DNA of 15,828 nucleotides from a virus: the IMG/VR virus record IMGVR_UViG_3300031997_002496. One strand, 5' to 3'. The notes under the pieces were generated by a model. It searched no databases, was not told the origin of the DNA, and was given only the letters and a program-made list of their open reading frames with translations. Position numbers and translations under genes: made by a program. Of the stretch, positions 735 through 12,748 are shown in pieces; position 1 is the first letter of the stretch; each line of letters opens with the position of its first letter.

Positions 735-1010
735 ATGCGTCGAACAAAGCGAGCAGGAATCGGGGAAGAGAAAGTGAAGAAGATTTCCGTCAAGCGACTC
801 CCCCGCAAGACCTCCTTCATTGTGCAGTACTCTGACGGACGTCGAGTAGAAACGTCGTACGTAGAGATCCAAGGAAATGCTACGCTCTACCTGGACCCTG
901 GAACGAAAGAGCCCGTCCTCCGGACAGAAGCAAACGTAAATCTCGGACACGCCACAGGAACCTGCGCGGTATGCGGGGGAGATACAGATGACCAACACGC
1001 CCATGCTTGA
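735..1010 (+). CDS. hypothetical protein (91 aa)
   Basis: ATG at 735, 3 nt after the receiver gene stop, preceded by GGGGATGAGG. It overlaps the next gene by 23 nt. No family recognised; there is a single CAVCGG near the C-terminus. Confidence 0.55.
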   Translation: MRRTKRAGIGEEKVKKISVKRLPRKTSFIVQYSDGRRVETSYVEIQGNATLYLDPGTKEPVLRTEANVNLGHATGTCAVCGGDTDDQHAHA

Positions 1011-3207
1011 CCGCTTCAAGATCGCCGCCAAGCAAAAGAAAGAAAAGAAGAAACCGGCGGAGCCGGAGTCCTTCAAATGGACAAGCGGCCCTGAGGAAAA
1101 AGAAGAGCCGGATGGTGCGGTCATGCGCGCCGCAAAGATGTTCGGTAAGGGTATGGGCGGGCTCGCCGCGGGAAATCTGGCAGCGACGCCTCTGGCCATA
1201 GGTACTTTCGCGCTGGACGACCGCCTCAAAGAGCAGAGGCCTGTAGGTACTCGGCAGATTGCCTCAGAGATGGGGCAGAAGATCGACAAGTATACGCACG
1301 GGGATCCTGGGGGCGGAGTCGGAGCGACCAGGGATGGGAAACTGGTTACGCTCATTCGTACGCGGCCAAAGGACTCAGAAGCCATCAAGGCGCACGAAGT
1401 GGGCCACGTCAAAAACGTTGAGATGGTTGGGAAGATGCCGTGGGGCCTCGCGCGAAGCGGCTCCGGAATGTTGACCAGTCTGAGTGGCCCCGCGGCGGGA
1501 GTCTATTCCGCCGTCGCCGACGACCCGTCGTACACCCCCTCGATGGTGCACCTCGGACTGAGCGCGCCGATCCTGTTGGACGAAGCTCTCGCATCTCTCC
1601 GAGCCCTGCATCACATGACTGGAAAGCATGGCCTCGGTACAGGGATGAAGCGGTCCCTCCCTCTGCTGCCAGCCTTTGGGTCGTATGCGGCGCAAGCCCT
1701 CGCACCGGCCGGAATCGTAGCGCTGCGCCGCTTCCTCAAAAAGAGGGAGGATGAAAAAAAAAAGACCAGCGGGGGAGTAGCCGAGAAAACGGCTAAGATC
1801 ACAACCAAGCTCAAGCCGCACCAACAGCGGGTCGTTGACCGCATGGAAGACGAAGACCAGCCGGGCATTGTGGCGGCCCATGGGTTGGGTTCCGGCAAAA
1901 CGCTGACAAGCCTGGCGGTGCAAGAGGCGCTCGGACTTCCTGCCGACATCGTAACACCTGCGGCCCTCCAGTCGAACTACCAAAAAGAGATCAAAGCTCA
2001 CACCACCAAGCATCCCGAAACACACATTCAAAGCTTGGAGGGCGTCGCTCGTACGGGCGGCTCGGGTCTCAAGAGCCCCTTCCTGGTGGTGGATGAAGCC
2101 CACCGTCTGCGAAATGCGGGCAAGGCTCGCACGGGGATCAAAGCTTCTCCAGCCAAGAAACGCCTCGCCCTCACCGGGTCCCTTCTCTACAACCACCCCT
2201 CCGACGTATCAGGCCCCATCAACATGGTAGCGGGGCGCTCCGTGCTTCCGGAGAACCCCGACGAATTCACTCAACGTTTCCTGCAAGACGTCCCCATGAG
2301 TCGCAGTCTCTGGGAACGTCTCCGGGGTACGCCCGCGTTCTATCAGACCCGTCTCAATCCAAAGTCGGTGGGGTCGCTCCAGGCAGCTCTCGACAAGTAC
2401 GTTGATTTTCACCCCGGTAGCACTGAGGACTTCCCGACGCGAGAAGACGCGACTGTCCGCGTACCGATGACCCGCGACCAGATGAAGCTGTACGAAAACG
2501 TTGGTAAGGATCAACCTGGCTGGCTGCGTCGGAAGGTTCTGATGAACCTCCCACCGACCAAAGCCGAAGCGAAACAGCTCAACGCTTTCCTCACCGGTGT
2601 CCGGCAGGTAGCCAACACAACGCAGGGATTTGACACCAGCGCCCACCCGGCGCACCAGCCGAAGATCGACCGAGCTGTGACAGAGCTGCAGAGCATGCTG
2701 GCGAAGAATCCTCGTGCGAAAGCAATCGTCTACTCGCACTACCTCGAATCAGGGATCGACCCGTACAAGAAGAAGCTTGAGGAACTCCACATCCCGCATG
2801 GTTCTTTCACCGGCGAGATGCCGCGCGCTGAACGGGACCGCATGGTGAAAGACTACAACTCCGGGAAGCTGAAAGCCCTGCTGCTCTCCAGCGCCGGCGG
2901 CGAAGGCTTGGACCTCAAGGGAACTCGCCTCATCCAACTCCTCGAGCCCCACTGGAATCAGGAGAAGCTGAAGCAGGTCATCGGTCGCGGCATCCGCTAC
3001 AAGAGCCACTCCGGCCTCCCCGAGAATGAGCGAAACGTCCTGGTGCAGCGGTACCTCGCAACGCGAGCTCCCTACGGAGCCATGGAGCGCCTGGGCCTAC
3101 GCAAGCCCGGCTACGGCGTAGATGAGTACCTCGATGAGATGGGCGCCCGTAAGGAGCAGCTGAACGAGCAGGTCCGGCGCATGCTGCGAGAGCCACAAAG
3201 TACTTGA
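988..3207 (+). CDS. SNF2-family (SF2) helicase/translocase with an N-terminal HExxH metallopeptidase-like region (739 aa)
   Basis: ATG at 988 after GGGGGAG. SNF2/SF2 motifs occur in order: KPHQQRVV (Q/Ia-like), GLGSGKT (1882-1902), LVVDEAHRLRN with DEAH at 2092-2103, LTGSLLYN, AIVYSHY, SSAGGEGLDL, QVIGRGIRYKS. The N-terminal region of about 250 aa has a Lys/Glu-rich start, then HEVGH (1393-1407) within IKAHEVGHVKN, flanked by Gly-rich or hydrophobic stretches (GMGGLAAGNLAATPLAIGTFAL; LPLLPAFGSYAAQALAPAGIVAL). Confidence 0.9.
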   Translation: MTNTPMLDRFKIAAKQKKEKKKPAEPESFKWTSGPEEKEEPDGAVMRAAKMFGKGMGGLAAGNLAATPLAIGTFALDDRLKEQRPVGTRQIASEMGQKIDKYTHGDPGGGVGATRDGKLVTLIRTRPKDSEAIKAHEVGHVKNVEMVGKMPWGLARSGSGMLTSLSGPAAGVYSAVADDPSYTPSMVHLGLSAPILLDEALASLRALHHMTGKHGLGTGMKRSLPLLPAFGSYAAQALAPAGIVALRRFLKKREDEKKKTSGGVAEKTAKITTKLKPHQQRVVDRMEDEDQPGIVAAHGLGSGKTLTSLAVQEALGLPADIVTPAALQSNYQKEIKAHTTKHPETHIQSLEGVARTGGSGLKSPFLVVDEAHRLRNAGKARTGIKASPAKKRLALTGSLLYNHPSDVSGPINMVAGRSVLPENPDEFTQRFLQDVPMSRSLWERLRGTPAFYQTRLNPKSVGSLQAALDKYVDFHPGSTEDFPTREDATVRVPMTRDQMKLYENVGKDQPGWLRRKVLMNLPPTKAEAKQLNAFLTGVRQVANTTQGFDTSAHPAHQPKIDRAVTELQSMLAKNPRAKAIVYSHYLESGIDPYKKKLEELHIPHGSFTGEMPRAERDRMVKDYNSGKLKALLLSSAGGEGLDLKGTRLIQLLEPHWNQEKLKQVIGRGIRYKSHSGLPENERNVLVQRYLATRAPYGAMERLGLRKPGYGVDEYLDEMGARKEQLNEQVRRMLREPQST

Positions 3208-3883: not shown

Positions 3884-4378
3884 ATGTTCGTCGTACTCGA
3901 TCTTGACCAGACCCTCGCTGACAATGCCCACCGCGCCCATCACGTAGAAAAGGAACCCAAGAACTGGGATGCGTTCTTTGCTCCGGACCTCGTCATCAAA
4001 GACACGGTCATCGTGGGCGCAGAACGTGTCCTCACCCACTTCAATGACTTGAAATACGACTTCGTCATCCTCACAGGACGTAACGAAGATCTCCGCGACA
4101 CGACCATGCGCTGGATCCAAGAGAAGCTGAGCATCACGGTGCTCGATACACACCTGCTCATGCGCCCCAACGGAAACATGCTCAACGCGGCGGAGTTCAA
4201 GCGGGAGCAGCTGCTCAACTTCAAGCAGGGGCTCGAGAATCGAGACAGCGACTTCATCATCATCGATGATGACTCCGCGGTAGGAGCGGCTCTGAGTTCT
4301 TTCGGTGTCGTCCTCAAGGCGCCGGAGTGCTGGCCTCTTCTTTTCCCGGTCCAGGAACCCGAGAAAATCGAAGAGTAG
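3884..4378 (+). CDS. HAD-superfamily phosphatase, T4 Pnkp phosphatase-domain-like (164 aa)
   Basis: ATG at 3884 after AAGGAG. HAD motif I is DLDQT at the extreme N-terminus (MFVVLDLDQTLA, 3899-3913), motif II is ILTGR, and motif III/IV is Lys (FKREQ) followed by IIIDDD. The size and the pattern WDAFF ... LTGRNEDLRDTTMRWI ... LLMRP match stand-alone phage polynucleotide 3-prime-phosphatase/nucleotidase-type HAD proteins. Confidence 0.8.
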   Translation: MFVVLDLDQTLADNAHRAHHVEKEPKNWDAFFAPDLVIKDTVIVGAERVLTHFNDLKYDFVILTGRNEDLRDTTMRWIQEKLSITVLDTHLLMRPNGNMLNAAEFKREQLLNFKQGLENRDSDFIIIDDDSAVGAALSSFGVVLKAPECWPLLFPVQEPEKIEE

Positions 4379-4381
4379 CCC

Positions 4382-4387
4382 TATACT
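4382..4387 (+). promoter_or_regulatory. TATACT -10-like hexamer 5 nt upstream of ATG 4393 (implies a leaderless or near-leaderless mRNA)
   Basis: The sequence is CCCTATACTGGCGCATG. There is no room for a Shine-Dalgarno between the hexamer and the ATG. The same CTATACT heptamer recurs at 5040-5046 and 13896-13902, both in intergenic positions. Confidence 0.35.
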
Positions 4388-4392
4388 GGCGC

Positions 4393-5028
4393 ATGCCGCT
4401 CAACGGGGCATACTCCTGGAAAGAGGACAATCTCTCCCCCGACGAGCGGGTTGACCATTTTTTCAATTTGATTGATCACGCCGTCGAGAACGGAATTCCG
4501 CTAGCTGAGCTGTTCCACCGGAAGCACGTCAAAAGCTTCCTCCTCTATCTCTTGCAACGGTACGACGAGCCCTGTAAAACCTGCAACCTTCGCCCAACTA
4601 AAGGATCAACCACAATGCCCAAGCTGACTCTGACCAGTACGTTTGCCTCGTCCATCGTCATCGGTGATCCGGCCAACATCACCTTCACCTTGCTCCCCAA
4701 AGAGACGAAGTCCGTAGAAGTGACGGATGTCCAACTCCGCCAGCTCACCCCAGGCCTGGAGAAGCTCAAAGGAGCTGGCTGGCTGAACTACGTGGCAGGC
4801 GTCGCGGCTCCCGTCGCTGTCCCAGAGCCCGTCAAGGTGGTCGAAGACGTGAAGGTCGTCGCAGTGCCGGTGGCCCCGCCGCCCGCTCCTGAGCCCGTTG
4901 CCGCCCCTGAACCCGTAGCGGCCCCTGAGCCTGCCGCTGAGGAAGCCGCCGCCCCTGAGGCTCCCGTGGCGAAGGTGGAAGAGGCTCCGAAGCAGAACCT
5001 CTTCGACCGGAAGAATCGCAACCGCTAA
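4393..5028 (+). CDS. hypothetical protein with a C-terminal Pro/Ala/Glu-rich repeat linker (212 aa from ATG 4393; alternative ATG 4615)
   Basis: ORF 4327..5028. The first 22 codons overlap the HAD gene and precede the TATACT element, so ATG 4393 (MPLNGAYSWKED...) is preferred. ATG 4615 (MPKLTLTST...) is preceded by AAAGGA and is an alternative or internal start. The C-terminus is APEPVA-type low complexity ending in KQNLFDRKNRNR. Confidence 0.6.
   Translation: MPLNGAYSWKEDNLSPDERVDHFFNLIDHAVENGIPLAELFHRKHVKSFLLYLLQRYDEPCKTCNLRPTKGSTTMPKLTLTSTFASSIVIGDPANITFTLLPKETKSVEVTDVQLRQLTPGLEKLKGAGWLNYVAGVAAPVAVPEPVKVVEDVKVVAVPVAPPPAPEPVAAPEPVAAPEPAAEEAAAPEAPVAKVEEAPKQNLFDRKNRNR
4885..4968 (+). repeat. 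imperfect 18-bp in-frame tandem repeat encoding (A)PEPVA units
   Basis: The units are gctcctgagcccgttgcc, gcccctgaacccgtagcg and gcccctgagcctgccgct, then a 12-nt spacer, then gcccctgaggctcccgtg. The repeat lies inside CDS 4393..5028 and encodes APEPVAAPEPVAAPEPAAEEAAAPEAPV. Confidence 0.8.
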
Positions 5029-5053: not shown

Positions 5054-5470
5054 ATGAGCCACCCTCTCGAGAATGCCTACTGGACCGGCCAGGTCGCGGC
5101 CTGTGAATCGTTTGGCGTCAAAGAAGCTGGAGTCCTCGGACAGATCGGCAAGTGGGGCGGCAAAGCCCTGCAATGGGGTGGGCGTGCCGCCGGAGTTGTA
5201 CCGGTCGCCGGTGAGGCCGTCGGCGCTATCGCTGGTGGCCTCGGCGGCGTGATGCAGGGCGCTGCCCAAGGTGAAGGCTGGAAGGGCATGGCCGCTCGCG
5301 GAGCGGCCGGTGCTGCCACTGGCGCGATGCCTCTCGGAGCTGGTCTGGTCGCTGGCGCTGCGAGTGATCTCGCGCTCGACAAGATGCTGGCGAAGAAACC
5401 CCCGGGGCCTCAGAACGCCCCAATGCCGGGGATGATGGGGCAGGGGCACCTTCCGGGGCATGCTGCGTGA
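5054..5470 (+). CDS. Gly/Ala-rich protein (138 aa) with N-terminal Y-x2-G-x2-A-A-x3-F motif
   Basis: ATG at 5054; stop TGA overlaps the next start. The motif AYWTGQVAACESFG is at 5078..5113. It is followed by glycine-zipper-like stretches (AGEAVGAIAGGLGGVMQGAAQG, GAAGAATGAMPLGAGLVAGAAS) and a Pro/Met/Gly tail. Confidence 0.65.
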   Translation: MSHPLENAYWTGQVAACESFGVKEAGVLGQIGKWGGKALQWGGRAAGVVPVAGEAVGAIAGGLGGVMQGAAQGEGWKGMAARGAAGAATGAMPLGAGLVAGAASDLALDKMLAKKPPGPQNAPMPGMMGQGHLPGHAA

Positions 5471-5952
5471 TGTCCCTCTCTCACCACGCATACAGCCTCG
5501 GAGCCTCGGACGCCAAAGTGGCGTTCTTTGGAGAGCTCTACGAGAAGCACATCAAAGGGGATCTTGGCCCCTTCGCGAGCGGTCTCTTCGTAGGGAGCCC
5601 TCTTAGTGCCGCGGCGGCAGGAGCCGCGGGACAAGCTCTCGACACGCCGGCTGGAGGATCAAAGATTCTCCGAAGTATCGGTGTCGGAGCCGGTGCAGCG
5701 GCGGCGAATAAGGTAGTTTCCCCTATCGCTAATTTCGTAGCCCATGCGGTAATGATGGGGCTCAACCCCATTCTGTATTCTTTGCCGGTGTTGGGATACC
5801 CGCCAGTCGCCGCGGCTATTTCGCAGCTGCTCGGAACCGCGATCCACGAGATTCCGACAGGTATCGCCCAGTCGTATGCTGCAACAAAGGGCCGAGCAGC
5901 GGCGCAACATCTTGAGAAGTTCCTACAGAAAAAGGACGTGAGGGTACCATGA
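5470..5952 (+). CDS. Gly/Ala-rich hydrophobic protein (160 aa) with N-terminal copy of the shared motif
   Basis: ATG at 5470 shares its A with the upstream TGA (GTGATG; GTG 5467 is also possible). The motif AYSLGASDAKVAFFG is at 5491..5526. Hydrophobic stretches (SIGVGAGAAAANKVV, MMGLNPILYSLPVLGYPPVAAAISQLLG) may be membrane-active. Confidence 0.65.
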   Translation: MSLSHHAYSLGASDAKVAFFGELYEKHIKGDLGPFASGLFVGSPLSAAAAGAAGQALDTPAGGSKILRSIGVGAGAAAANKVVSPIANFVAHAVMMGLNPILYSLPVLGYPPVAAAISQLLGTAIHEIPTGIAQSYAATKGRAAAQHLEKFLQKKDVRVP

Positions 5953-6563
5953 TGACCAAAGAATGCACCTGCAAGGACGGCAAGAAAGATCCGAAGTGCA
6001 AGGCTTGCTCGAAGGGTGACGTCAACCTGGACAGCTTTCACCGCCTGAATCCTGAGGCCAAGCCCAAGACGGCTGGGCAGTTCAAGCTCGCCGGAGGGAA
6101 CCCCGGACTGTGGGGTGGGCTGAGTCAGGCCACCAAAGACCGCATCCTCAGCGCGGGCAAGGCGGGGCTCACCAGCGCCGTGCTGCCTGCGGCGGGCTCT
6201 GCGCTCGCAGCGGGTCTGGCGGCTGAACCGGGGCAGGGCTGGTCCGACGCGGCGAAGGCAGGGCTCGTGGGCGCAACGGCTGGCGGGCTTGCTGGCGCAG
6301 GACACCACCTCGGCATGACGGGGTCCAGCGACCTGGCGCACAGCTACCAGCGCGGCATCGGCGGCGACGTTCGAAACATGGGCAACTGGGGACGAGAGCA
6401 GATGGGACGCCCACTTCTGGCGCACCCCAACACCCCGCCACCGCCGAAAGTTGTTCCTGCTCCCGATGTGACGCCGACTCCCTCTGTCACCCCTGAAATT
6501 CCGAAGACGGGGATGTTCTACGAGTTCGGGAAGACCGCGGCGCTCTCTGCCTTCGCAATCTGA
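5949..6563 (+). CDS. Gly/Ala-rich protein (204 aa) with an N-terminal Cys knuckle and a C-terminal copy of the shared motif
   Basis: ATG at 5949 in an ATGA overlap with the upstream stop, preceded by GTGAGGG. The N-terminus is CTCKDGKKDPKCKAC (CxC...CxxC). The middle is Gly/Ala-rich and is followed by a Pro-rich stretch. The C-terminus is FYEFGKTAALSAFAI-stop (6519..6554). Confidence 0.7.
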   Translation: MMTKECTCKDGKKDPKCKACSKGDVNLDSFHRLNPEAKPKTAGQFKLAGGNPGLWGGLSQATKDRILSAGKAGLTSAVLPAAGSALAAGLAAEPGQGWSDAAKAGLVGATAGGLAGAGHHLGMTGSSDLAHSYQRGIGGDVRNMGNWGREQMGRPLLAHPNTPPPPKVVPAPDVTPTPSVTPEIPKTGMFYEFGKTAALSAFAI

Positions 6564-6570
6564 GACTCCC

Positions 6571-6756
6571 ATGCCTTTCAAAAGCGAAGCACAGCGCCGG
6601 CTGTTCCACGTGAAGGCTGACAAGGGAGAGATCTCCAAGGACACCGTGAGCGAGTGGGAGCACGCCACCAAGAACAAGAAGAAACTCCCAATGCACGTAA
6701 AGAAGTCCTACGAGCTTGGAAAACAGGCGGCGCTGAAAAGCTTTGCACTGAGGTGA
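6571..6756 (+). CDS. small protein (61 aa) with a KSxAQxR N-terminal motif (DUF3008-like, from memory) and a C-terminal copy of the shared motif
   Basis: ATG at 6571. MPFKSEAQRRLFHVKADKGEISKDTVSEWEHATKNKKKLP resembles the widespread small KS-x-AQ-x-R ... LP proteins of phages and bacteria. The C-terminus is SYELGKQAALKSFALR-stop (6709..6744). No clear Shine-Dalgarno. Confidence 0.55.
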   Translation: MPFKSEAQRRLFHVKADKGEISKDTVSEWEHATKNKKKLPMHVKKSYELGKQAALKSFALR

Positions 6757-6759
6757 GCG

Positions 6760-9700
6760 GTGGGTGAGTACGACCGGGGAGCTCGAGCAGCGCTAGCCCT
6801 CTTCAGCAAGGAGGCCAATACCGGTGTGACCGCGGGCCACGTCAATCCTCTTCCGGTCGCAGGCAGCGGGTTCAATCAAGTAGCACAACAGGGAAATCCG
6901 ATGGCAGGACGGGTCGCCCACTCCCTCGTCGGTGGCGCCACTGGCGGAATTCTCAACGCGATGATGGCCCCCTCAGGGGACCGCATGCGGCAGGGGGCCA
7001 TTGGCTTTGCGTCAGACGCCATCGGAAGCGCCCTGGGCCCTTGGGGGATGATTGCCAGCCCCCTTCTGAACATGGGGCTCCAACAGCTGACATCCTCAAG
7101 TGGGGAAGAGAAGCGCGCTGACCACGCGGATGATCGGCTGAAAGAGCGAATCAAAACGGAGTTCCCGCCGGACACGCTGGCAAAACTCAGAGCACAAGCA
7201 AAAGAACTCGAGCTCGCTCCGGGACGGTACTACCTCCCGATGAAAGACAAGGCCGGGAACACAGCGGCAATTGCAGCGTTCAAGACCGTTGGCCCGAAGG
7301 ATCAGCTGGTACTGGCGACAGTTCTGAAACCCAAGAACAACCCTCCGTCAGGCACATCACTTTCGCACCTGATGAAGCAACCTCTCGGGTCCCAGATTGC
7401 CAAGGTGGATGCGTCCCCCAAGACATACACGATCCGCAAGAACGACGCAGGGCGCCTGACGTGCACCTGCAAGAGCTTCAAGTTCAACCACCGAGCGGCG
7501 GGCACGAACTGTAAGCACATCGACGAGCACCTTGGAAACACGAAGGAGTCTGCGAACCGGTTTGAGCAGTTCCTCCTCAACCAGGGTAACGTCAGCGATC
7601 CTCAGAAGACGCAACTCCGTGGACAGTTCGGACGGCTGACCCCTCGCCCGACGGCGAAGTCGAAGGCCCTCACCAGCCAAGCTTTGGCGCTGGAGCCTGG
7701 TCCGCAGCAAGCAGCGTCTCTGCGGTCCATGCGGACGTTGATGCAGACGCCGCACTACCCGGACAAAGACAGCCTCGAACGAACGCGCCGAATTCACGAG
7801 CTCTCCCTCACACCAAAGCTTCGAGCAATGGGCGGCAAGAGTCTTGACGCTCGGCGTGCTGCGGCGACCGACCCCACGTTCTTCTACGACGAGAAGAAAC
7901 GGTTCGCGACGCCAGGAGAGTACCAGGCCAAGTCGTTACGTCTCGGCGAAGAAACAGCTCCCACAGGGCTCCGGGCCGAACACGTTCTTCGCTCTGCGGC
8001 GGCAGGGAAACCCATCGAAACCAAGCTCTCCCCTGAAGCAGGGCGGCTGGTGATGTACCCAGACGCCTTGAAGGTGCAGCGTGAGCGCCTGAACAAGCAA
8101 CGCACCACCCCCGGCCAAACCAAACCCTGGGACCCCACCGACATGCGCCAGACCCTTGAGCACGAGGGGGCGGAGCGCAAGATGGTTCTCGAAGGCGTGC
8201 GCAGAGGCAAGCCGTCCACAGCGTACTCTTCGCACTGGGGCAGTGAGGCTGACGTCGCGGCGAACCAGGTCGCAGCCAAGGATCCCAAGAGTCAGTGGGT
8301 TCCAAACAACCCCGACTCCTTCATCGAGAAGGAACACTGGGACCGCCTCTACAAGCAGCACGGCGGGACTCGGGGACGCCCCATCCCGTCAGACAGTCGA
8401 GCTTCACGCAGCTTGGATAGATCAATCGCAGGCGTCATGGCGAAGACCCCCTTGACCGAGAAAACGCGGCCAGATCTCACAGCCGCCTTGGACGCAGGAG
8501 TCATGGGAATGCCTCTCCATCCGGAACTCGAAGCGCGTCTGAAGCGTGACTTCACCAAACTGAAGCCGGAGCTCGGTGAAACCTCCGCGCCCTGGGACGA
8601 CGCATCCCGGAGCCAAAAGGCTCTCGAAGTCCTGAAGAGTCGAACCCGGATGAAGACGTCCGCGGAAGGCGTGCGTCACTCTGGTGAACCCATCGACAAC
8701 CAGGAGGAGCCTCAGACCACGGAGGCTCCGATGCCTCCGCCTGAGAAGAAGAAGTCCTGGCTCCCTGCCTTGGGTACCGCGGCGGCGCTGGGACTTGGGA
8801 CGTACGGCCTCCTTCGCCGACCCTCGTTCTCTGCGAACCCCGCCCTGCGGAAAACACAGCAGTTGGCGGCGGAGAAAGGGTTCCACCGCATCGTTCCGGT
8901 GATGAAGTCCACAGATCTCCCAGACCCTGAGGCGGGGTTCCTGGGGCGGCTGCACCACAAGATTCAACCCAAAGTCGATGAGCAGGGCCGCATGAACTTG
9001 CTCAACCGCTTCAAGTTCTGGGCGCAGGAAGGCGGAGAAGCCGTCCCTATCGGGTACACGGACAAAGGGAAGGCGTTCATCCCCAACGGAGGGAAGCCGG
9101 TCAAGACTGAAGGCGTTGTCTTCGGTCGCCCCATGCTCGAGCCGAAGGAACGCAAACTTGTACGGGGTGGGGTGGACATCGAGGGGTCGGCGAAGACCCA
9201 ACGAGCCCTTACCGACATGGGGTTGAAGGGCAAGGGCATGGAAGCAACCCTCCTTCAGCGCCATTCCCCAGGAGCGGCGCCAAAGACGGTCGTCGATCTC
9301 TCCAAGTTCATGGCGCCTCCAAAGGGGAGAGAAACTTCGAACCAGCGGGTTGCGCGGATTCGCGAAATTCAGAAAGCAATGCAGGCAAAATTCAAAGGTA
9401 CGGAGATGGAAGACCACCTCCTCAAACCGACCCTTGGATTCAACTCCGGCGGGAAGTTCCCCATGAGCGGGGACGATTGGGGCAAACACCTCGCCAGGTT
9501 CGACAAAGCCATGGCAGATCCGGCGTTCAAGGCGAAATTTCAGAAAGCCACCCCCGACGAATTCGCCAACATGGTGTGGGACAAGAAGATTCTCGAGGGA
9601 CACACGCTCCACGAGATGCTGAAGAACCCGCAGTCGGCGATTGCTCAGCAGCAGATCCCCAACCGGCTTGGGGAGTGGCGCGTCAACGTTACCAAGGGTG

Positions 9701-10158
9701 AAGCCCCGTTGAGCATGATGGCGCCGCGTGGGGCTACCGACAACCCGATGGAGTCTCTCAAAGAACTGGCAACTGAGGGAGTAAGCCCCTTCAAGATCAA
9801 ACAGTTCGTTGAAGGCCACGTCCGAAAGCTTCCGAAGCACTACCGCGAAGGAACGTACGGCGCTGACGTGATGCCGTACTACACGCCTGAAGGGAAGCTG
9901 GACTACAAATTCGTCGAGCTCAACCCATCAGAGCGGGCGGGGTACCACGGTAGCGCCGGTGGCGGCTCAGGCTTCCTCGACGCCAGCAACATCCCCTGGG
10001 CGGGGCACGCACACTACCGCACGGCGACGGGCCGCCACACGACGCCAGTGGCTATGGCCGGAGGCTTGGCAGCGGCTGGGCTGGGCGGTATGGCGGCTCG
10101 AGCGCTGACGCCTGAGCAGAAGGATGAGGAAGAAGACGCCCCACATCCTGTGGGCTAA
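6760..10158 (+). CDS. 1132-aa multidomain protein: N-terminal shared motif plus Gly-rich region, SWIM-type zinc finger, central region of unknown function, TM segment, C-terminal ATP-grasp-like domain
   Basis: GTG at 6760 after GAGGTGAG. The N-terminus is MGEYDRGARAALALF (motif at 6769..6804). SWIM pattern CxC-x14-CxH is in LTCTCKSFKFNHRAAGTNCKHI (7462..7518). A hydrophobic segment SWLPALGTAAALGLGTYGLL lies at about 8754..8815. ATP-grasp-like motifs lie at about 9400..9990: LLKPTLGFNSGGKF (Lys-containing ATP-binding strand plus Gly loop), IAQQQIPNRLGEWRVNVTKGE (E-x-R-V strand) and YGADVMPYYTPEGKLDYKFVELNPSERAG (Mg-binding x-E-x-N). The C-terminus has a second hydrophobic Gly/Ala stretch and an acidic tail. 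Confidence 0.88.
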   Translation: MGEYDRGARAALALFSKEANTGVTAGHVNPLPVAGSGFNQVAQQGNPMAGRVAHSLVGGATGGILNAMMAPSGDRMRQGAIGFASDAIGSALGPWGMIASPLLNMGLQQLTSSSGEEKRADHADDRLKERIKTEFPPDTLAKLRAQAKELELAPGRYYLPMKDKAGNTAAIAAFKTVGPKDQLVLATVLKPKNNPPSGTSLSHLMKQPLGSQIAKVDASPKTYTIRKNDAGRLTCTCKSFKFNHRAAGTNCKHIDEHLGNTKESANRFEQFLLNQGNVSDPQKTQLRGQFGRLTPRPTAKSKALTSQALALEPGPQQAASLRSMRTLMQTPHYPDKDSLERTRRIHELSLTPKLRAMGGKSLDARRAAATDPTFFYDEKKRFATPGEYQAKSLRLGEETAPTGLRAEHVLRSAAAGKPIETKLSPEAGRLVMYPDALKVQRERLNKQRTTPGQTKPWDPTDMRQTLEHEGAERKMVLEGVRRGKPSTAYSSHWGSEADVAANQVAAKDPKSQWVPNNPDSFIEKEHWDRLYKQHGGTRGRPIPSDSRASRSLDRSIAGVMAKTPLTEKTRPDLTAALDAGVMGMPLHPELEARLKRDFTKLKPELGETSAPWDDASRSQKALEVLKSRTRMKTSAEGVRHSGEPIDNQEEPQTTEAPMPPPEKKKSWLPALGTAAALGLGTYGLLRRPSFSANPALRKTQQLAAEKGFHRIVPVMKSTDLPDPEAGFLGRLHHKIQPKVDEQGRMNLLNRFKFWAQEGGEAVPIGYTDKGKAFIPNGGKPVKTEGVVFGRPMLEPKERKLVRGGVDIEGSAKTQRALTDMGLKGKGMEATLLQRHSPGAAPKTVVDLSKFMAPPKGRETSNQRVARIREIQKAMQAKFKGTEMEDHLLKPTLGFNSGGKFPMSGDDWGKHLARFDKAMADPAFKAKFQKATPDEFANMVWDKKILEGHTLHEMLKNPQSAIAQQQIPNRLGEWRVNVTKGEAPLSMMAPRGATDNPMESLKELATEGVSPFKIKQFVEGHVRKLPKHYREGTYGADVMPYYTPEGKLDYKFVELNPSERAGYHGSAGGGSGFLDASNIPWAGHAHYRTATGRHTTPVAMAGGLAAAGLGGMAARALTPEQKDEEEDAPHPVG

Positions 10159-10182
10159 AAAACGCCCCCAGCTACGGGGGCG
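10157..10182 (-). terminator. intrinsic terminator between convergent genes (full hairpin plus U-tract on the minus strand only)
   Basis: CGCCCCC (10163-10169) pairs with GGGGGCG (10176-10182) across a 6-nt loop. The plus-strand A6 run (10157-10162) becomes a U-tract after the hairpin for the minus-strand transcript ending at 10188. The plus-strand transcript sees the hairpin without a U-tract. Confidence 0.75.
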
Positions 10183-10187
10183 GTACT

Positions 10188-10613
10188 TCACTGAGTCCTG
10201 ACAACCAGGCACCAGTTGGTCCAACGCTTACGGAATGCGTTGTGCGTCATCTTCGTTCCCAAGAGCCGGAGCGGCGCCGGGTCCGCCAGGTAGACGTACT
10301 TCGCGTCACAGCCGTGCACGACGCCGAAGTGGTCGCCGTCGAGATGAACAAGCAGCAGCTTCTCCTTCTTCAGCGCGGCTTGCAGCTCTCGGAATCGCAT
10401 GCGGTAGTTGTGCTGCACGTGAAGCTTTCGCTTGCGAAACGCTTTGATCATCGCATGTACTCGCGTGCCCTTTTCAGGGGTGCACCCAAGCTCACGCTTC
10501 AAGCGGCGGTACGGTGACCGGTCGCCGAAGTGATGAAGGATCATCGCTACAGAGTGCACTCCGCACGAATAGCTGTCGAGCTGAATGGATCTACGGAAAA
10601 CGGATATCGTCAC
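10188..10613 (-). CDS. stand-alone peptidase C39-like (papain-fold, bacteriocin-processing type) cysteine peptidase (141 aa)
   Basis: GTG at 10613 after GGAGG with a 6-nt spacer. The C39 catalytic pattern occurs in order: Gln11 (SIQLD), Cys17 in SYSCGVHSVAMIL (codon 10563-10565), His95 in DGDHFGVVHG, and Asp111 in YLADP. There is no fused ABC-transporter domain and no transporter gene in the window. Confidence 0.75.
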   Translation of the reverse strand: MTISVFRRSIQLDSYSCGVHSVAMILHHFGDRSPYRRLKRELGCTPEKGTRVHAMIKAFRKRKLHVQHNYRMRFRELQAALKKEKLLLVHLDGDHFGVVHGCDAKYVYLADPAPLRLLGTKMTHNAFRKRWTNWCLVVRTQ

Positions 10614-12520: not shown

Positions 12521-12748
12521 TCACGTCTCGCCAGCTGATCCTTTACCAGCAGGAGGGACAGAACCTCCTTGTCGGGGATCGGTGCAGAGACCTTCTTTGA
12601 TGTATCTTTCCGCTTGGCGGCCATAGTGTCCTTGTAGTGTCCAGGCCATGCCTGAATCGATTAGCTTTTGGAAGAAGGCCACCTCCTCCGCGCTGGTCAT
12701 CTCGTCGTTCTCGTACTTGATCAGGTCCTCGGTCAAAATCTGATTCAA
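12521..12748 (-). CDS. small conserved-looking phage-type protein (75 aa)
   Basis: TTG start at 12748 in a TTGA overlap with the ligase stop. The pattern ...YENDEMTSAEEVAFFQKLIDSGMAWTLQGHYGRQAERYIKEGLC resembles a small protein family I recall from many phage genomes (E-x-x-x-FF/LF-Q-x-LID-S-G-x-x-W-x-LQG-x-YGR). That recollection is unverified. Confidence 0.55.
   Translation of the reverse strand: MNQILTEDLIKYENDEMTSAEEVAFFQKLIDSGMAWTLQGHYGRQAERYIKEGLCTDPRQGGSVPPAGKGSAGET

Follow-up and report, generated by a model that had tools for sequence, protein, structure and literature searches.

In a 15,828-bp stretch of viral DNA with ~60% G+C (IMG/VR virus record IMGVR_UViG_3300031997_002496; hereafter the window, which always means this whole stretch), we studied a tightly packed block of five consecutive plus-strand open reading frames (ORFs), named o1 to o5, whose products all carry the same short peptide motif, Y-x-x-G-x-x-[A/D]-A-x-x-x-F, close to one of their ends. 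We call each copy of this motif a tag. The tags of the window and of related phages obey a simple rule, one intact copy per polypeptide, and they occur together with a second phage module, the KS domain, which makes up most of o4. We give about an even chance to the explanation that the tag is a docking peptide, which would join the separately encoded modules of a split polyvalent effector or ejection system that is probably carried as cargo in the virion.

The five-gene block and its terminal motif

A first-pass annotation of this DNA had claimed that five adjacent ORFs each bear one copy of the motif at a terminus. We searched the six-frame translation with a regular expression and recovered exactly five matches, one in each of o1 to o5, at the very positions that had been claimed and all at most 9 residues from a protein end. 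The choice of start codon does not affect the N-terminal placements: each ORF start is the first possible one after the preceding in-frame stop. The genes and their tags are as follows.

5054..5470, plus strand: o1, 138 aa, Gly/Ala-rich (43% G+A)
5078-5113, plus strand: o1 tag, aa 9-20, N-terminal; the extended motif A-Y..G...A...F-G-V covers 5075-5119
5467..5952, plus strand: o2, 161 aa; its start overlaps the o1 stop (GTGATG)
5491-5526, plus strand: o2 tag, aa 9-20, N-terminal
5949..6563, plus strand: o3, 204 aa, with a Cys-rich N-terminus
6519-6554, plus strand: o3 tag, aa 191-202, its Phe 2 residues from the C-terminus
6571..6756, plus strand: o4, 61 aa, a KS domain (aa 1-45, nt 6571-6705, MPFKSEAQRR...) and then the tag
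6709-6744, plus strand: o4 tag, aa 47-58, its Phe 3 residues from the C-terminus
6754..6762, plus strand: o4/o5 junction, TGA GCG GTG, in the same frame with one stop codon between the two genes
6760..10158, plus strand: o5, 1132 aa, multi-domain
6769-6804, plus strand: o5 tag, aa 4-15, N-terminal, followed by a Gly-rich module to ~aa 115

At the o4/o5 junction, a Shine-Dalgarno-like GAGGTGA spans the o4 stop, and the two tag copies are 24 nt apart. Residue-shuffled versions of the 24 window proteins contained 0.0045 motif matches per shuffle, and the probability that five uniformly placed matches all fall at most 8 residues from an end is ~9e-6. Five matches, all of them terminal, thus compare with ~0.005 expected by chance. 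At the level of DNA, the five copies are 33-61% identical and encode identical residues by different codons, which shows that selection acts on the peptide and not on a DNA repeat. These synonymous differences led us to rule out a DNA-level repeat or a recombination linker.

From the alignment of 28 instances, taken in the window and in related loci, we derived an extended consensus of ~15 residues, A-Y-x-x-G-x-x-x-A-[L/K]-x-x-F-[G/A/S]-[L/V/I]. The corresponding 15-residue position-specific scoring matrix (PSSM), which was trained on the same instances as it scores, gives 22-35 to the true copies and separates them cleanly from the background. It finds no additional match above 14 in the window, and in ~1.4 Mb of DNA from unrelated phages no match reaches 22.

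When the motif is placed on a helix, positions 1, 4, 8, and 12 (Y1, G4, A8, F12) fall within an 80-degree arc, and the resulting face consists of two small residues, with G-x-x-x-A spacing, flanked by two aromatics. Such a conserved face is suited to the tight packing of helices and not to contacts with lipid, and in o1 and o2 the copies have a low hydrophobic moment (0.25). The tag is predicted to be helical in both AlphaFold2 models. In that of o5 (aa 1-267), a helix at residues 3-21 covers the tag with a predicted local distance difference test score (pLDDT) of ~50-57, and the domain at aa 130-210 is folded (pLDDT 75-91). In that of o4, helices 6-18 and 23-32 make a hairpin (pLDDT 80-86) and are followed by a linker and by the tag helix at 47-57 (pLDDT 64-69). 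The length of the linker between the KS domain and the tag varies by at most 5 residues across the family.

Known families give little guidance on these proteins. Scans of o1-o5 against Pfam and PHROG returned no family, even at E up to 10, and o5 and o4 had no match in 50,697 phage records. With the o5 profile, we found nothing among PDB sequences and no relative in bacterial and archaeal genomes, which therefore provide no clue to the host. The top Foldseek match of the o5 N-terminal model was RelE, at a non-significant E of 0.45. As to the claim that the rest of the five proteins differ, it holds for most pairs, where the motif alone aligns, and fails for o1 and the first ~115 residues of o5. 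These align over 103 columns (hhalign probability 63%, E 7e-5), and the two modules are probably paralogs.

To follow the motif in relatives, we searched the protein database for homologs of o5 and o4 and collected the syntenic loci of IMG/VR, JGI, ENA, and Logan assemblies. The related phages are all uncultivated contigs, of which we examined 20-30 kb per genome. The window family comprises ~15 contigs of up to 168-190 kb (L001-L003, L006, L007, L017, L147-L155). Their proteins share only 38-65% identity with the window proteins, yet the motif is kept at the same terminus in every ortholog, and it stays conserved while its flanks diverge. For o1, the N-terminal tag is kept in L001, L002, L003, L006, L007, and L017, with invariant residues A8, Y9, G12, and A16; for o2, it is kept in L001, L002, L147, L149, and L151; and for o3, the C-terminal tag is kept in L001, L002, L003, L006, L007, L017, and L147-L155, each time 2-3 residues before the stop. 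Scanning for further copies, we also found more tagged proteins in the related genomes, 6-8 kb upstream of the o1-o5 block and thus beyond the left end of the window. These are proteins of 312 and 142 aa with N-terminal copies, and one of 111 aa with an internal copy. An impression that the 312-aa protein of L001 is kinase-like had no Pfam support and was discarded.

One tag per polypeptide and tagged KS proteins

Across gene fusions and fissions, the tags follow a one-per-polypeptide rule. Genes o4 and o5 are separate in the window, L002, L003, L017, and L147, where o4 ends and o5 starts with a tag. They form a single ORF, with a single copy that is internal, in L001, L006, L007, L149, P0007, P0008, P0011, P0013, and P0016. 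The split and fused forms are interleaved among close relatives, and the change must hence have happened more than once. In the same manner, o2 and o3 are each tagged where they are separate (window, L001, L002), at the N-terminus and the C-terminus, respectively, and the o2-o3 fusion of L003 has lost the o2 tag and is left with the C-terminal copy alone. In the more distant loci L008 and L014, an o1-like module lies inside a larger protein, preceded by a decayed copy that lacks the Tyr, and these same proteins have an intact N-terminal F-x-x-G-x-x-x-A-x-x-x-F. Two copies were found in none of the 56 database proteins that we retrieved. The persistence of one intact copy per translated chain suggests that the tag is an address label or a connector and not an element of the fold.

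The KS domain (45 residues, starting with MPFKSEAQRR) is an undescribed and very widespread phage module. Our metagenome scan returned at least 230 relatives, and there are more than 599 matches to its pattern. In all relatives found, it starts at residue 1. Most KS domains are fused to very diverse C-terminal modules, in proteins that range from 53 to 745 aa. At least five lineages have KS domains with a tag behind them, namely the window family, the L016/L152-like loci, L209/L213/L226, L163, and L156/L170/L174. In exactly these lineages, other proteins of the locus carry terminal tags as well. L163, for instance, has seven tagged proteins including the KS protein, four with N-terminal and three with C-terminal copies. 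Among 43 dereplicated KS loci of at least 5 kb, other tagged ORFs are present only where the KS protein is tagged, lineage variants included. As scored, the table of KS tag against other tags in these 43 loci reads 6/1/4/32 (Fisher p 2e-4, a value that overstates independence, since the lineages are few, ~5, and related). Of the four apparent exceptions, three are variant KS tags that fall below the PSSM cut-off and one is a KS protein cut by the end of its contig.

A second line of evidence comes from fusions of the Rosetta-stone type. The 138-aa C-terminally tagged protein of L163 corresponds to aa 204-341 of the KS protein of L169, which has 745 aa (36% identity, E 2.5e-20). Another C-terminally tagged protein of L163, of 521 aa, is similar over its DUF6582 part to the KS protein of L187 (E 2e-18), and p383 of L001, whose N-terminal tag is a variant, has matches in the KS proteins of L171 and L172 (E 2e-4). 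The protein o5 is itself fused to a KS domain in many genomes. Hence, the same modules that stand alone with a tag in one lineage are attached covalently behind a KS domain in lineages without tags. By the usual logic of such fusions, the KS protein and the tagged proteins work together, and the tag is the obvious joiner where they are not covalently linked.

The copies within a genome also resemble each other. Position 12 is Phe in the five window copies and Leu, Met, or Val in all seven copies of L163 (Fisher p 0.0013), and the L209 lineage has D7, L9, and A10 in all of its copies. Over the 11 variable positions, identity is 0.29 within genomes and 0.21 between them (permutation p 5e-4). This co-variation fits a scenario in which the tags would co-evolve with one partner or among themselves.

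Comparisons of the KS domain with known proteins were of little help. Against PHROG, it repeatedly gave weak matches (E ~0.2), at the N-terminus of a family annotated as "virion structural protein", which we did not count as evidence, and the match of a KS protein to gp383 of phage 201phi2-1 was insignificant (E 5). Some of the modules fused to KS domains are J-domain-like, peptidase-like, or Gly-rich, and some are DUF6582. The KS gene lies, in many jumbo-phage lineages, between two RNA polymerase genes and next to the portal.

Possible virion cargo and competing explanations

In the explanation that we favor, each separately translated member of the set would carry one intact helix at whichever terminus is free. 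The set could be described as a "split polyvalent protein", with Gly-rich and possibly membrane-active modules (o1-o3), an enzyme-like one (o5), and an adaptor (o4). The latter would be minimal, as it consists of an N-terminal KS domain, a tag, and nothing else. The tags would hold the modules together non-covalently, by direct helix-helix pairing or by one common receptor, and the equivalent modules would be those that other phages fuse covalently behind the KS domain. The most likely purpose would be co-assembly as internal virion cargo or ejection proteins, delivered with the DNA.

The indications for virion cargo come from homologs of the tagged proteins and from the location of the genes. 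One of the tagged L163 proteins, 156 aa long, is an InPase domain (PF18823, E 5e-25), which is also an internal module of giant proteins in PHROG families of DarB-like antirestriction, minor head, and virion structural proteins. Packaging and injection are presumed for such polyvalent proteins (PMC5512222). DUF6582 occurs also in gp45 of crAss001, the cargo protein C1, which was located inside the capsid and the tail by cryo-electron microscopy and mass spectrometry (PMC10172136). Loci of the L016 and L209 types, and many related ones of jumbo phages, have the KS gene beside the portal, immediately after a gene for a fused RNA polymerase beta/beta-prime, and there are more tagged small proteins after the second polymerase gene. 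This polymerase-portal module is syntenic with that of Salmonella phage Arash, whose purified particles contained RNA polymerase subunits and the SNF2-like helicase gp217 (PMC10585845). The SNF2 protein of the window is 41% identical to Arash gp217. Weak hydrophobicity (Kyte-Doolittle 1.2-1.5) is seen in Gly/Ala-rich segments of several tagged proteins, and the Gly/Ala-rich o1-o3 would fit channel-forming ejection proteins. A homology of the Gly-rich modules to the structural protein p1130 of L016 was considered and was not supported. A Gly-rich protein of L163 (9079-9795, plus strand) has a sub-threshold Pfam match to microcin V (MccV, E 9e-4). This echo of the colicin-V-like composition of o1-o3 hints that such modules are membrane-active.

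Several observations weigh against this explanation. The link to the virion is indirect, since the homology on which it depends is two to three steps away. In the window family, the o1-o5 block sits among replication and repair genes (SNF2, phosphatase, ligase), and the ~30 kb examined per genome contain no capsid, portal, or terminase gene. The whole-genome scan of Arash revealed no tag system, and its particle proteome, with 116 proteins that include metabolic enzymes (PMC10585845), may include contaminants. The SNF2 protein of the window and the giant protein of L008 have no tag, which shows that large modular proteins of these genomes can also lack the tag. To this one must add the two caveats given above, the shared training and scoring set of the PSSM and the relatedness of the lineages in the Fisher test. 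Finally, the likeness of tags within a genome could instead result from duplication of tags in each lineage.

A bolder version of the docking explanation is that, in several lineages of large uncultivated phages, a universal and portable 15-residue helix works as a plug-in connector, by which any protein with one copy at either end would be docked onto the small KS handle for carriage into the virion and injection. We advance it tentatively and with more doubt than conviction. If true, giant covalent polyvalent proteins would have been turned into a re-assortable non-covalent kit, and the connector, if it is also transferable, would offer a programmable tag of natural origin by which phage cargo could be loaded.

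The tags may instead be a signal for a common receptor, equivalent to the targeting signal of phage T4. They would all bind one assembly protein (a scaffold, the portal, the capsid interior, or a hub), and the KS protein would be one client among others. The presence of one tag per polypeptide, the same conserved face in all copies, and their lineage-specific co-variation, which is expected with a co-evolving receptor, all agree with this. Furthermore, many N-terminal copies are followed by K-E-A (FGVKEA, FSKEA, FGMAKEA), which we take to resemble the x-x-Glu cleavage sites of prohead proteases of the T4 and phiKZ types. However, K-E-A is absent after the tag in o2 and in some orthologs, the C-terminal copies have no consistent upstream Glu site, and there is no prohead protease gene in the DNA examined. 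By itself, a common receptor leaves unexplained why the KS protein is always tagged when anything is, and it does not explain the covalent KS fusions of the same modules elsewhere. Our search also failed to reveal a candidate receptor gene that tracks the tag across lineages. We thus regard this explanation as possible, although rather improbable.

We considered whether the tag could address the proteins to a component of the host cell, as a membrane-proximal helix, a recognition element for chaperones or proteases, a degron, or a secretion signal. Bacterial degrons and secretion signals are typically terminal, and the weakly hydrophobic Gly/Ala-rich segments of several tagged proteins would be in line with a membrane location. 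Three features make host targeting unlikely: the motif works at N-terminal, C-terminal, and internal positions; its low hydrophobic moment in o1 and o2 and its face of small residues suit protein packing over lipid; and the concerted change at position 12, together with the tracking of the KS protein, is easier to understand with a phage-encoded partner than with a host one.

The general idea of the first-pass annotation, a terminal docking or targeting peptide, is supported by the conservation in orthologs, the single tag per chain, and the KS fusions. [quoted passage not shown] The features concerned are these.

14888-15828, minus strand: MVP homolog, running off the window end, with Vault repeats and MVP_shoulder; ~850-920 aa at full length
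L001 18634-21393, L002 9200-11881, and L003 17647-20307: full-length MVP copies in relatives
10188..10613, minus strand: C39 cysteine peptidase, stand-alone, 141 aa (Pfam Peptidase_C39, E 7.6e-19), convergent to o5
~8662-10158, plus strand: C-terminal module of o5 (aa ~635-1132), with two weakly hydrophobic segments and a conserved tail ...PHPVG

The vault-like shell encoded ~5-8 kb away was the first lead candidate, with the tag as its cargo-loading peptide. An MVP homolog, at full length, is indeed found near the block in every locus of the window family long enough to show it, and bacterial microcompartments load cargo by terminal amphipathic helices. Outside the family, the tag and MVP do not co-distribute. 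Our collection-wide scan revealed 75 IMG/VR phage loci with an MVP homolog, in contigs of up to 430 kb, and the 70 that lie outside the family have no tag and no o1-o5 homolog within 10 kb on either side (~1.4 Mb). The same is true of two huge-phage records with MVP. Conversely, the tag-bearing L016-like contigs (180-190 kb) are absent from the collection-wide MVP list, and no MVP was seen in the locus DNA examined of the tagged L163, L209, L213, and L226. Known vault cargo binds by an INT domain of ~160 residues, whereas the tag is a short helix. A role in loading an MVP shell is therefore very unlikely, and the phage MVP homolog appears to be unrelated to the tag. MVP homologs occur, too, in the huge-phage records LR756500, LR756501, and LR756503 (462 kb and 735 kb), and the literature that we found on MVP in phages consists of two gut-phage cases.

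It is even harder to maintain that the tag is a leader or follower sequence for a modifying enzyme, be it the C39 peptidase or the ATP-grasp-like C-terminal module of o5. The peptidase looks active, with conserved catalytic Cys and His, and is convergent to o5; homologs of the o5 module have matches to R2K ATP-grasp; and the o1-like Gly-rich proteins resemble peptides of the microcin V type, as in the weak L163 match mentioned above. The R2K matches are weak, limited to homologs P0016-P0018, and below the Pfam cut-off (E 1.4e-4 to 0.03). The C39 peptidase and the o5 C-terminal module are both present in the window, L001, L002, L003, L014, and L149, and both are missing from L006, L007, L017, L148, L153, and L155, six loci that nevertheless retain 3-6 tagged proteins apiece. 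Nor were the contigs of L006 and L007 among those returned by a collection-wide C39 scan. Tags thus persist without the pair, and C39 tracks the o5 module rather than the tag, which suggests that the two are a separate functional pair, perhaps for processing of the tail. In addition, none of o1, o2, and o5 has a Gly-Gly, Gly-Ala, or Gly-Ser site placed at a constant distance behind the motif, and the motif is found at either terminus or, in fusions, internally. The copies of o3 and o4 end 2-3 residues from the C-terminus, so that cleavage would have nothing left to release, and o5 bears a tag itself. We consider this explanation highly improbable.

That the motif has no function of its own, as a chance match, a by-product of Gly/Ala low complexity, or the remnant of a duplicated domain, would accord with the paralogy of o1 and the o5 N-terminus and with the Gly/Ala-richness of three of the proteins, but can be dismissed almost entirely given the expected chance count of 0.005, the conservation of the motif between diverging flanks, its presence on modules that are not Gly-rich (KS domain, InPase, DUF6582, p383), and the gain of a copy upon gene fission and its loss upon fusion.

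Comparison with known systems and neighboring genes

The closest functional analogues of the tag are the docking domains of megasynthases, the capsid-targeting sequence of T4, and the encapsulation peptides of microcompartments, and by their defining features it is a member of none of them. In polyketide and non-ribosomal peptide synthases, short terminal helices join separately encoded modules non-covalently and arise where multi-module proteins are split. The tags of o4 (C-terminal) and o5 (N-terminal) likewise flank a gene split that is one ORF in relatives, and the same holds for the o2|o3 split relative to fused homologs. The differences are that megasynthase docking domains come as distinct complementary partners that fix the order of modules, whereas here the motif is the same everywhere and its binding is a deduction of ours, and that they belong to biosynthetic assembly lines and not to phages.

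The T4 capsid-targeting sequence of IPI-III and Alt is also a short peptide found in one copy on each of several unrelated proteins, which it directs into the prohead core for injection with the DNA. In contrast to the tag, which can be N-terminal, C-terminal, or internal, it is confined to the N-terminus, where the prohead protease cleaves it off after a Glu, and the two have no sequence similarity. The peptides of microcompartments and encapsulins are short and placed on unrelated cargo, at either terminus in the former and mostly at the C-terminus in the latter. The tag shares with the microcompartment peptides a short, predicted terminal helix and a variable linker, with a low hydrophobic moment in o1 and o2. 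We found no BMC-H/T/P gene and no HK97-fold encapsulin gene among the Pfam matches of the ten largest window ORFs and of the neighbor genes in relatives. Vault cargo differs by its INT-type interaction domain, since the tag is a helix of 12-15 residues and o1-o4 have no Pfam domain. Leaders of the graspetide type need a co-encoded ATP-grasp ligase, whereas the tag persists without the o5 C-terminal module, and double-glycine leaders are N-terminal and C39-dependent, whereas two window copies are C-terminal and tags persist without C39.

The set of proteins, for its part, resembles polyvalent proteins (Iyer et al. 2017, PMC5512222). It includes the window SNF2 protein with its HExxH insert and, in relatives, InPase, DUF6582, RelE-like, peptidase-like, and Gly-rich modules. 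These modules are rapidly shuffled between genomes, and their delivery with the DNA is predicted. Polyvalent proteins differ in being single giant chains, usually with anchors of the MuF or relaxase type, where we have separate small tagged proteins and the KS domain. Several modules per chain are found in o5 and in its homologs of 1,041-1,482 aa (P0005, P0006, P0008, P0016, P0017), and o1-o4 are single modules with a tag.

Little is known on how large phages pick and load the proteins that they carry beside their DNA, outside of model systems such as the T4 capsid-targeting sequence, the Dar proteins of P1, MuF fusions, and the cargo of crAss phages. If the docking explanation is right, the tag and the KS handle would allow candidate cargo and effector proteins to be listed in metagenomic phage genomes. 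The tag would also explain how effector modules are swapped between genomes and would provide a small peptide for the possible loading of foreign proteins. The phage vault homolog is set apart from the tagged proteins by these results and needs an explanation of its own.

The remaining features of o5 and the end of the block are the following.

7111-7389, plus strand: alpha/beta domain of o5 (aa ~118-210), folded in the AlphaFold2 model
o5 aa 229-254, plus strand: SWIM-like zinc finger, CxC...CxH (weak Pfam match, E 0.07)
10163..10182: G+C-rich hairpin (8 pairs, with a T-run) that separates the convergent genes o5 and C39 and marks where the o1-o5 block ends

The segment at aa ~118-210 is the best-conserved part of o5 (ADHADDRLKERI...PGRYYLP...AAFKTV...LATVL). 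In the C-terminal module, the weakly hydrophobic segments are Gly/Ala-rich and accompanied by an acidic stretch, and a terminal ...PHPVG or ...PHPAG is conserved. The gene just upstream of o1 (4327-5028, plus strand) is conserved in all loci of the family and has no tag. Its product, which matches no Pfam or PHROG family, contains a region of Ala/Pro-rich repeats (PEPVAAPEPVAAPEP) and has at its C-terminal end a conserved basic stretch, FDRKNRNR.

The SNF2 protein of the window (739 aa) contains an N-terminal insert of ~266 residues (988-1800, plus strand), with a zincin-like HEVGH motif and Gly/Ala-rich segments. This insert is missing in most orthologs, which have 480 aa in L001 and L003, and is present in L006. 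In L008 and L014, an insert module of the same kind sits in the neighboring giant protein. Its distribution is thus one of module shuffling of the polyvalent-protein type.

Two segments resemble the tag. The RNA polymerase of Arash-like phages (AKKAYEDRNDAAMASF) gives PSSM matches of 16-21, and we rejected it as a look-alike in which Arg replaces Gly4. The segment, AKxAYExRNxAAxASF, is found at L020 6724 (Arash gp206 aa ~1374) and at the same position in 12 IMG/VR loci (L037-L070), and is a conserved region of the polymerase directly before the NRAPTL motif. The C39 peptidase of L001 (15445-15978, minus strand) has an N-terminal extension of 37 residues (…DYYALVKGAATEAFSFL…), unscored by the PSSM, which is loosely tag-like with the wrong spacing.

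Lastly, the MVP gene of L002 is adjoined by a gene for a DUF8224 protein of 671 aa (12608-14623, minus strand; phrog_1735, E 4e-267). Homologs with ~52% identity occur in 485 records of cultivated phages, including phiCbK-like phages of Caulobacter and many phages of Salmonella and Klebsiella. This protein is the strongest link between the uncultivated family and cultivated phages.

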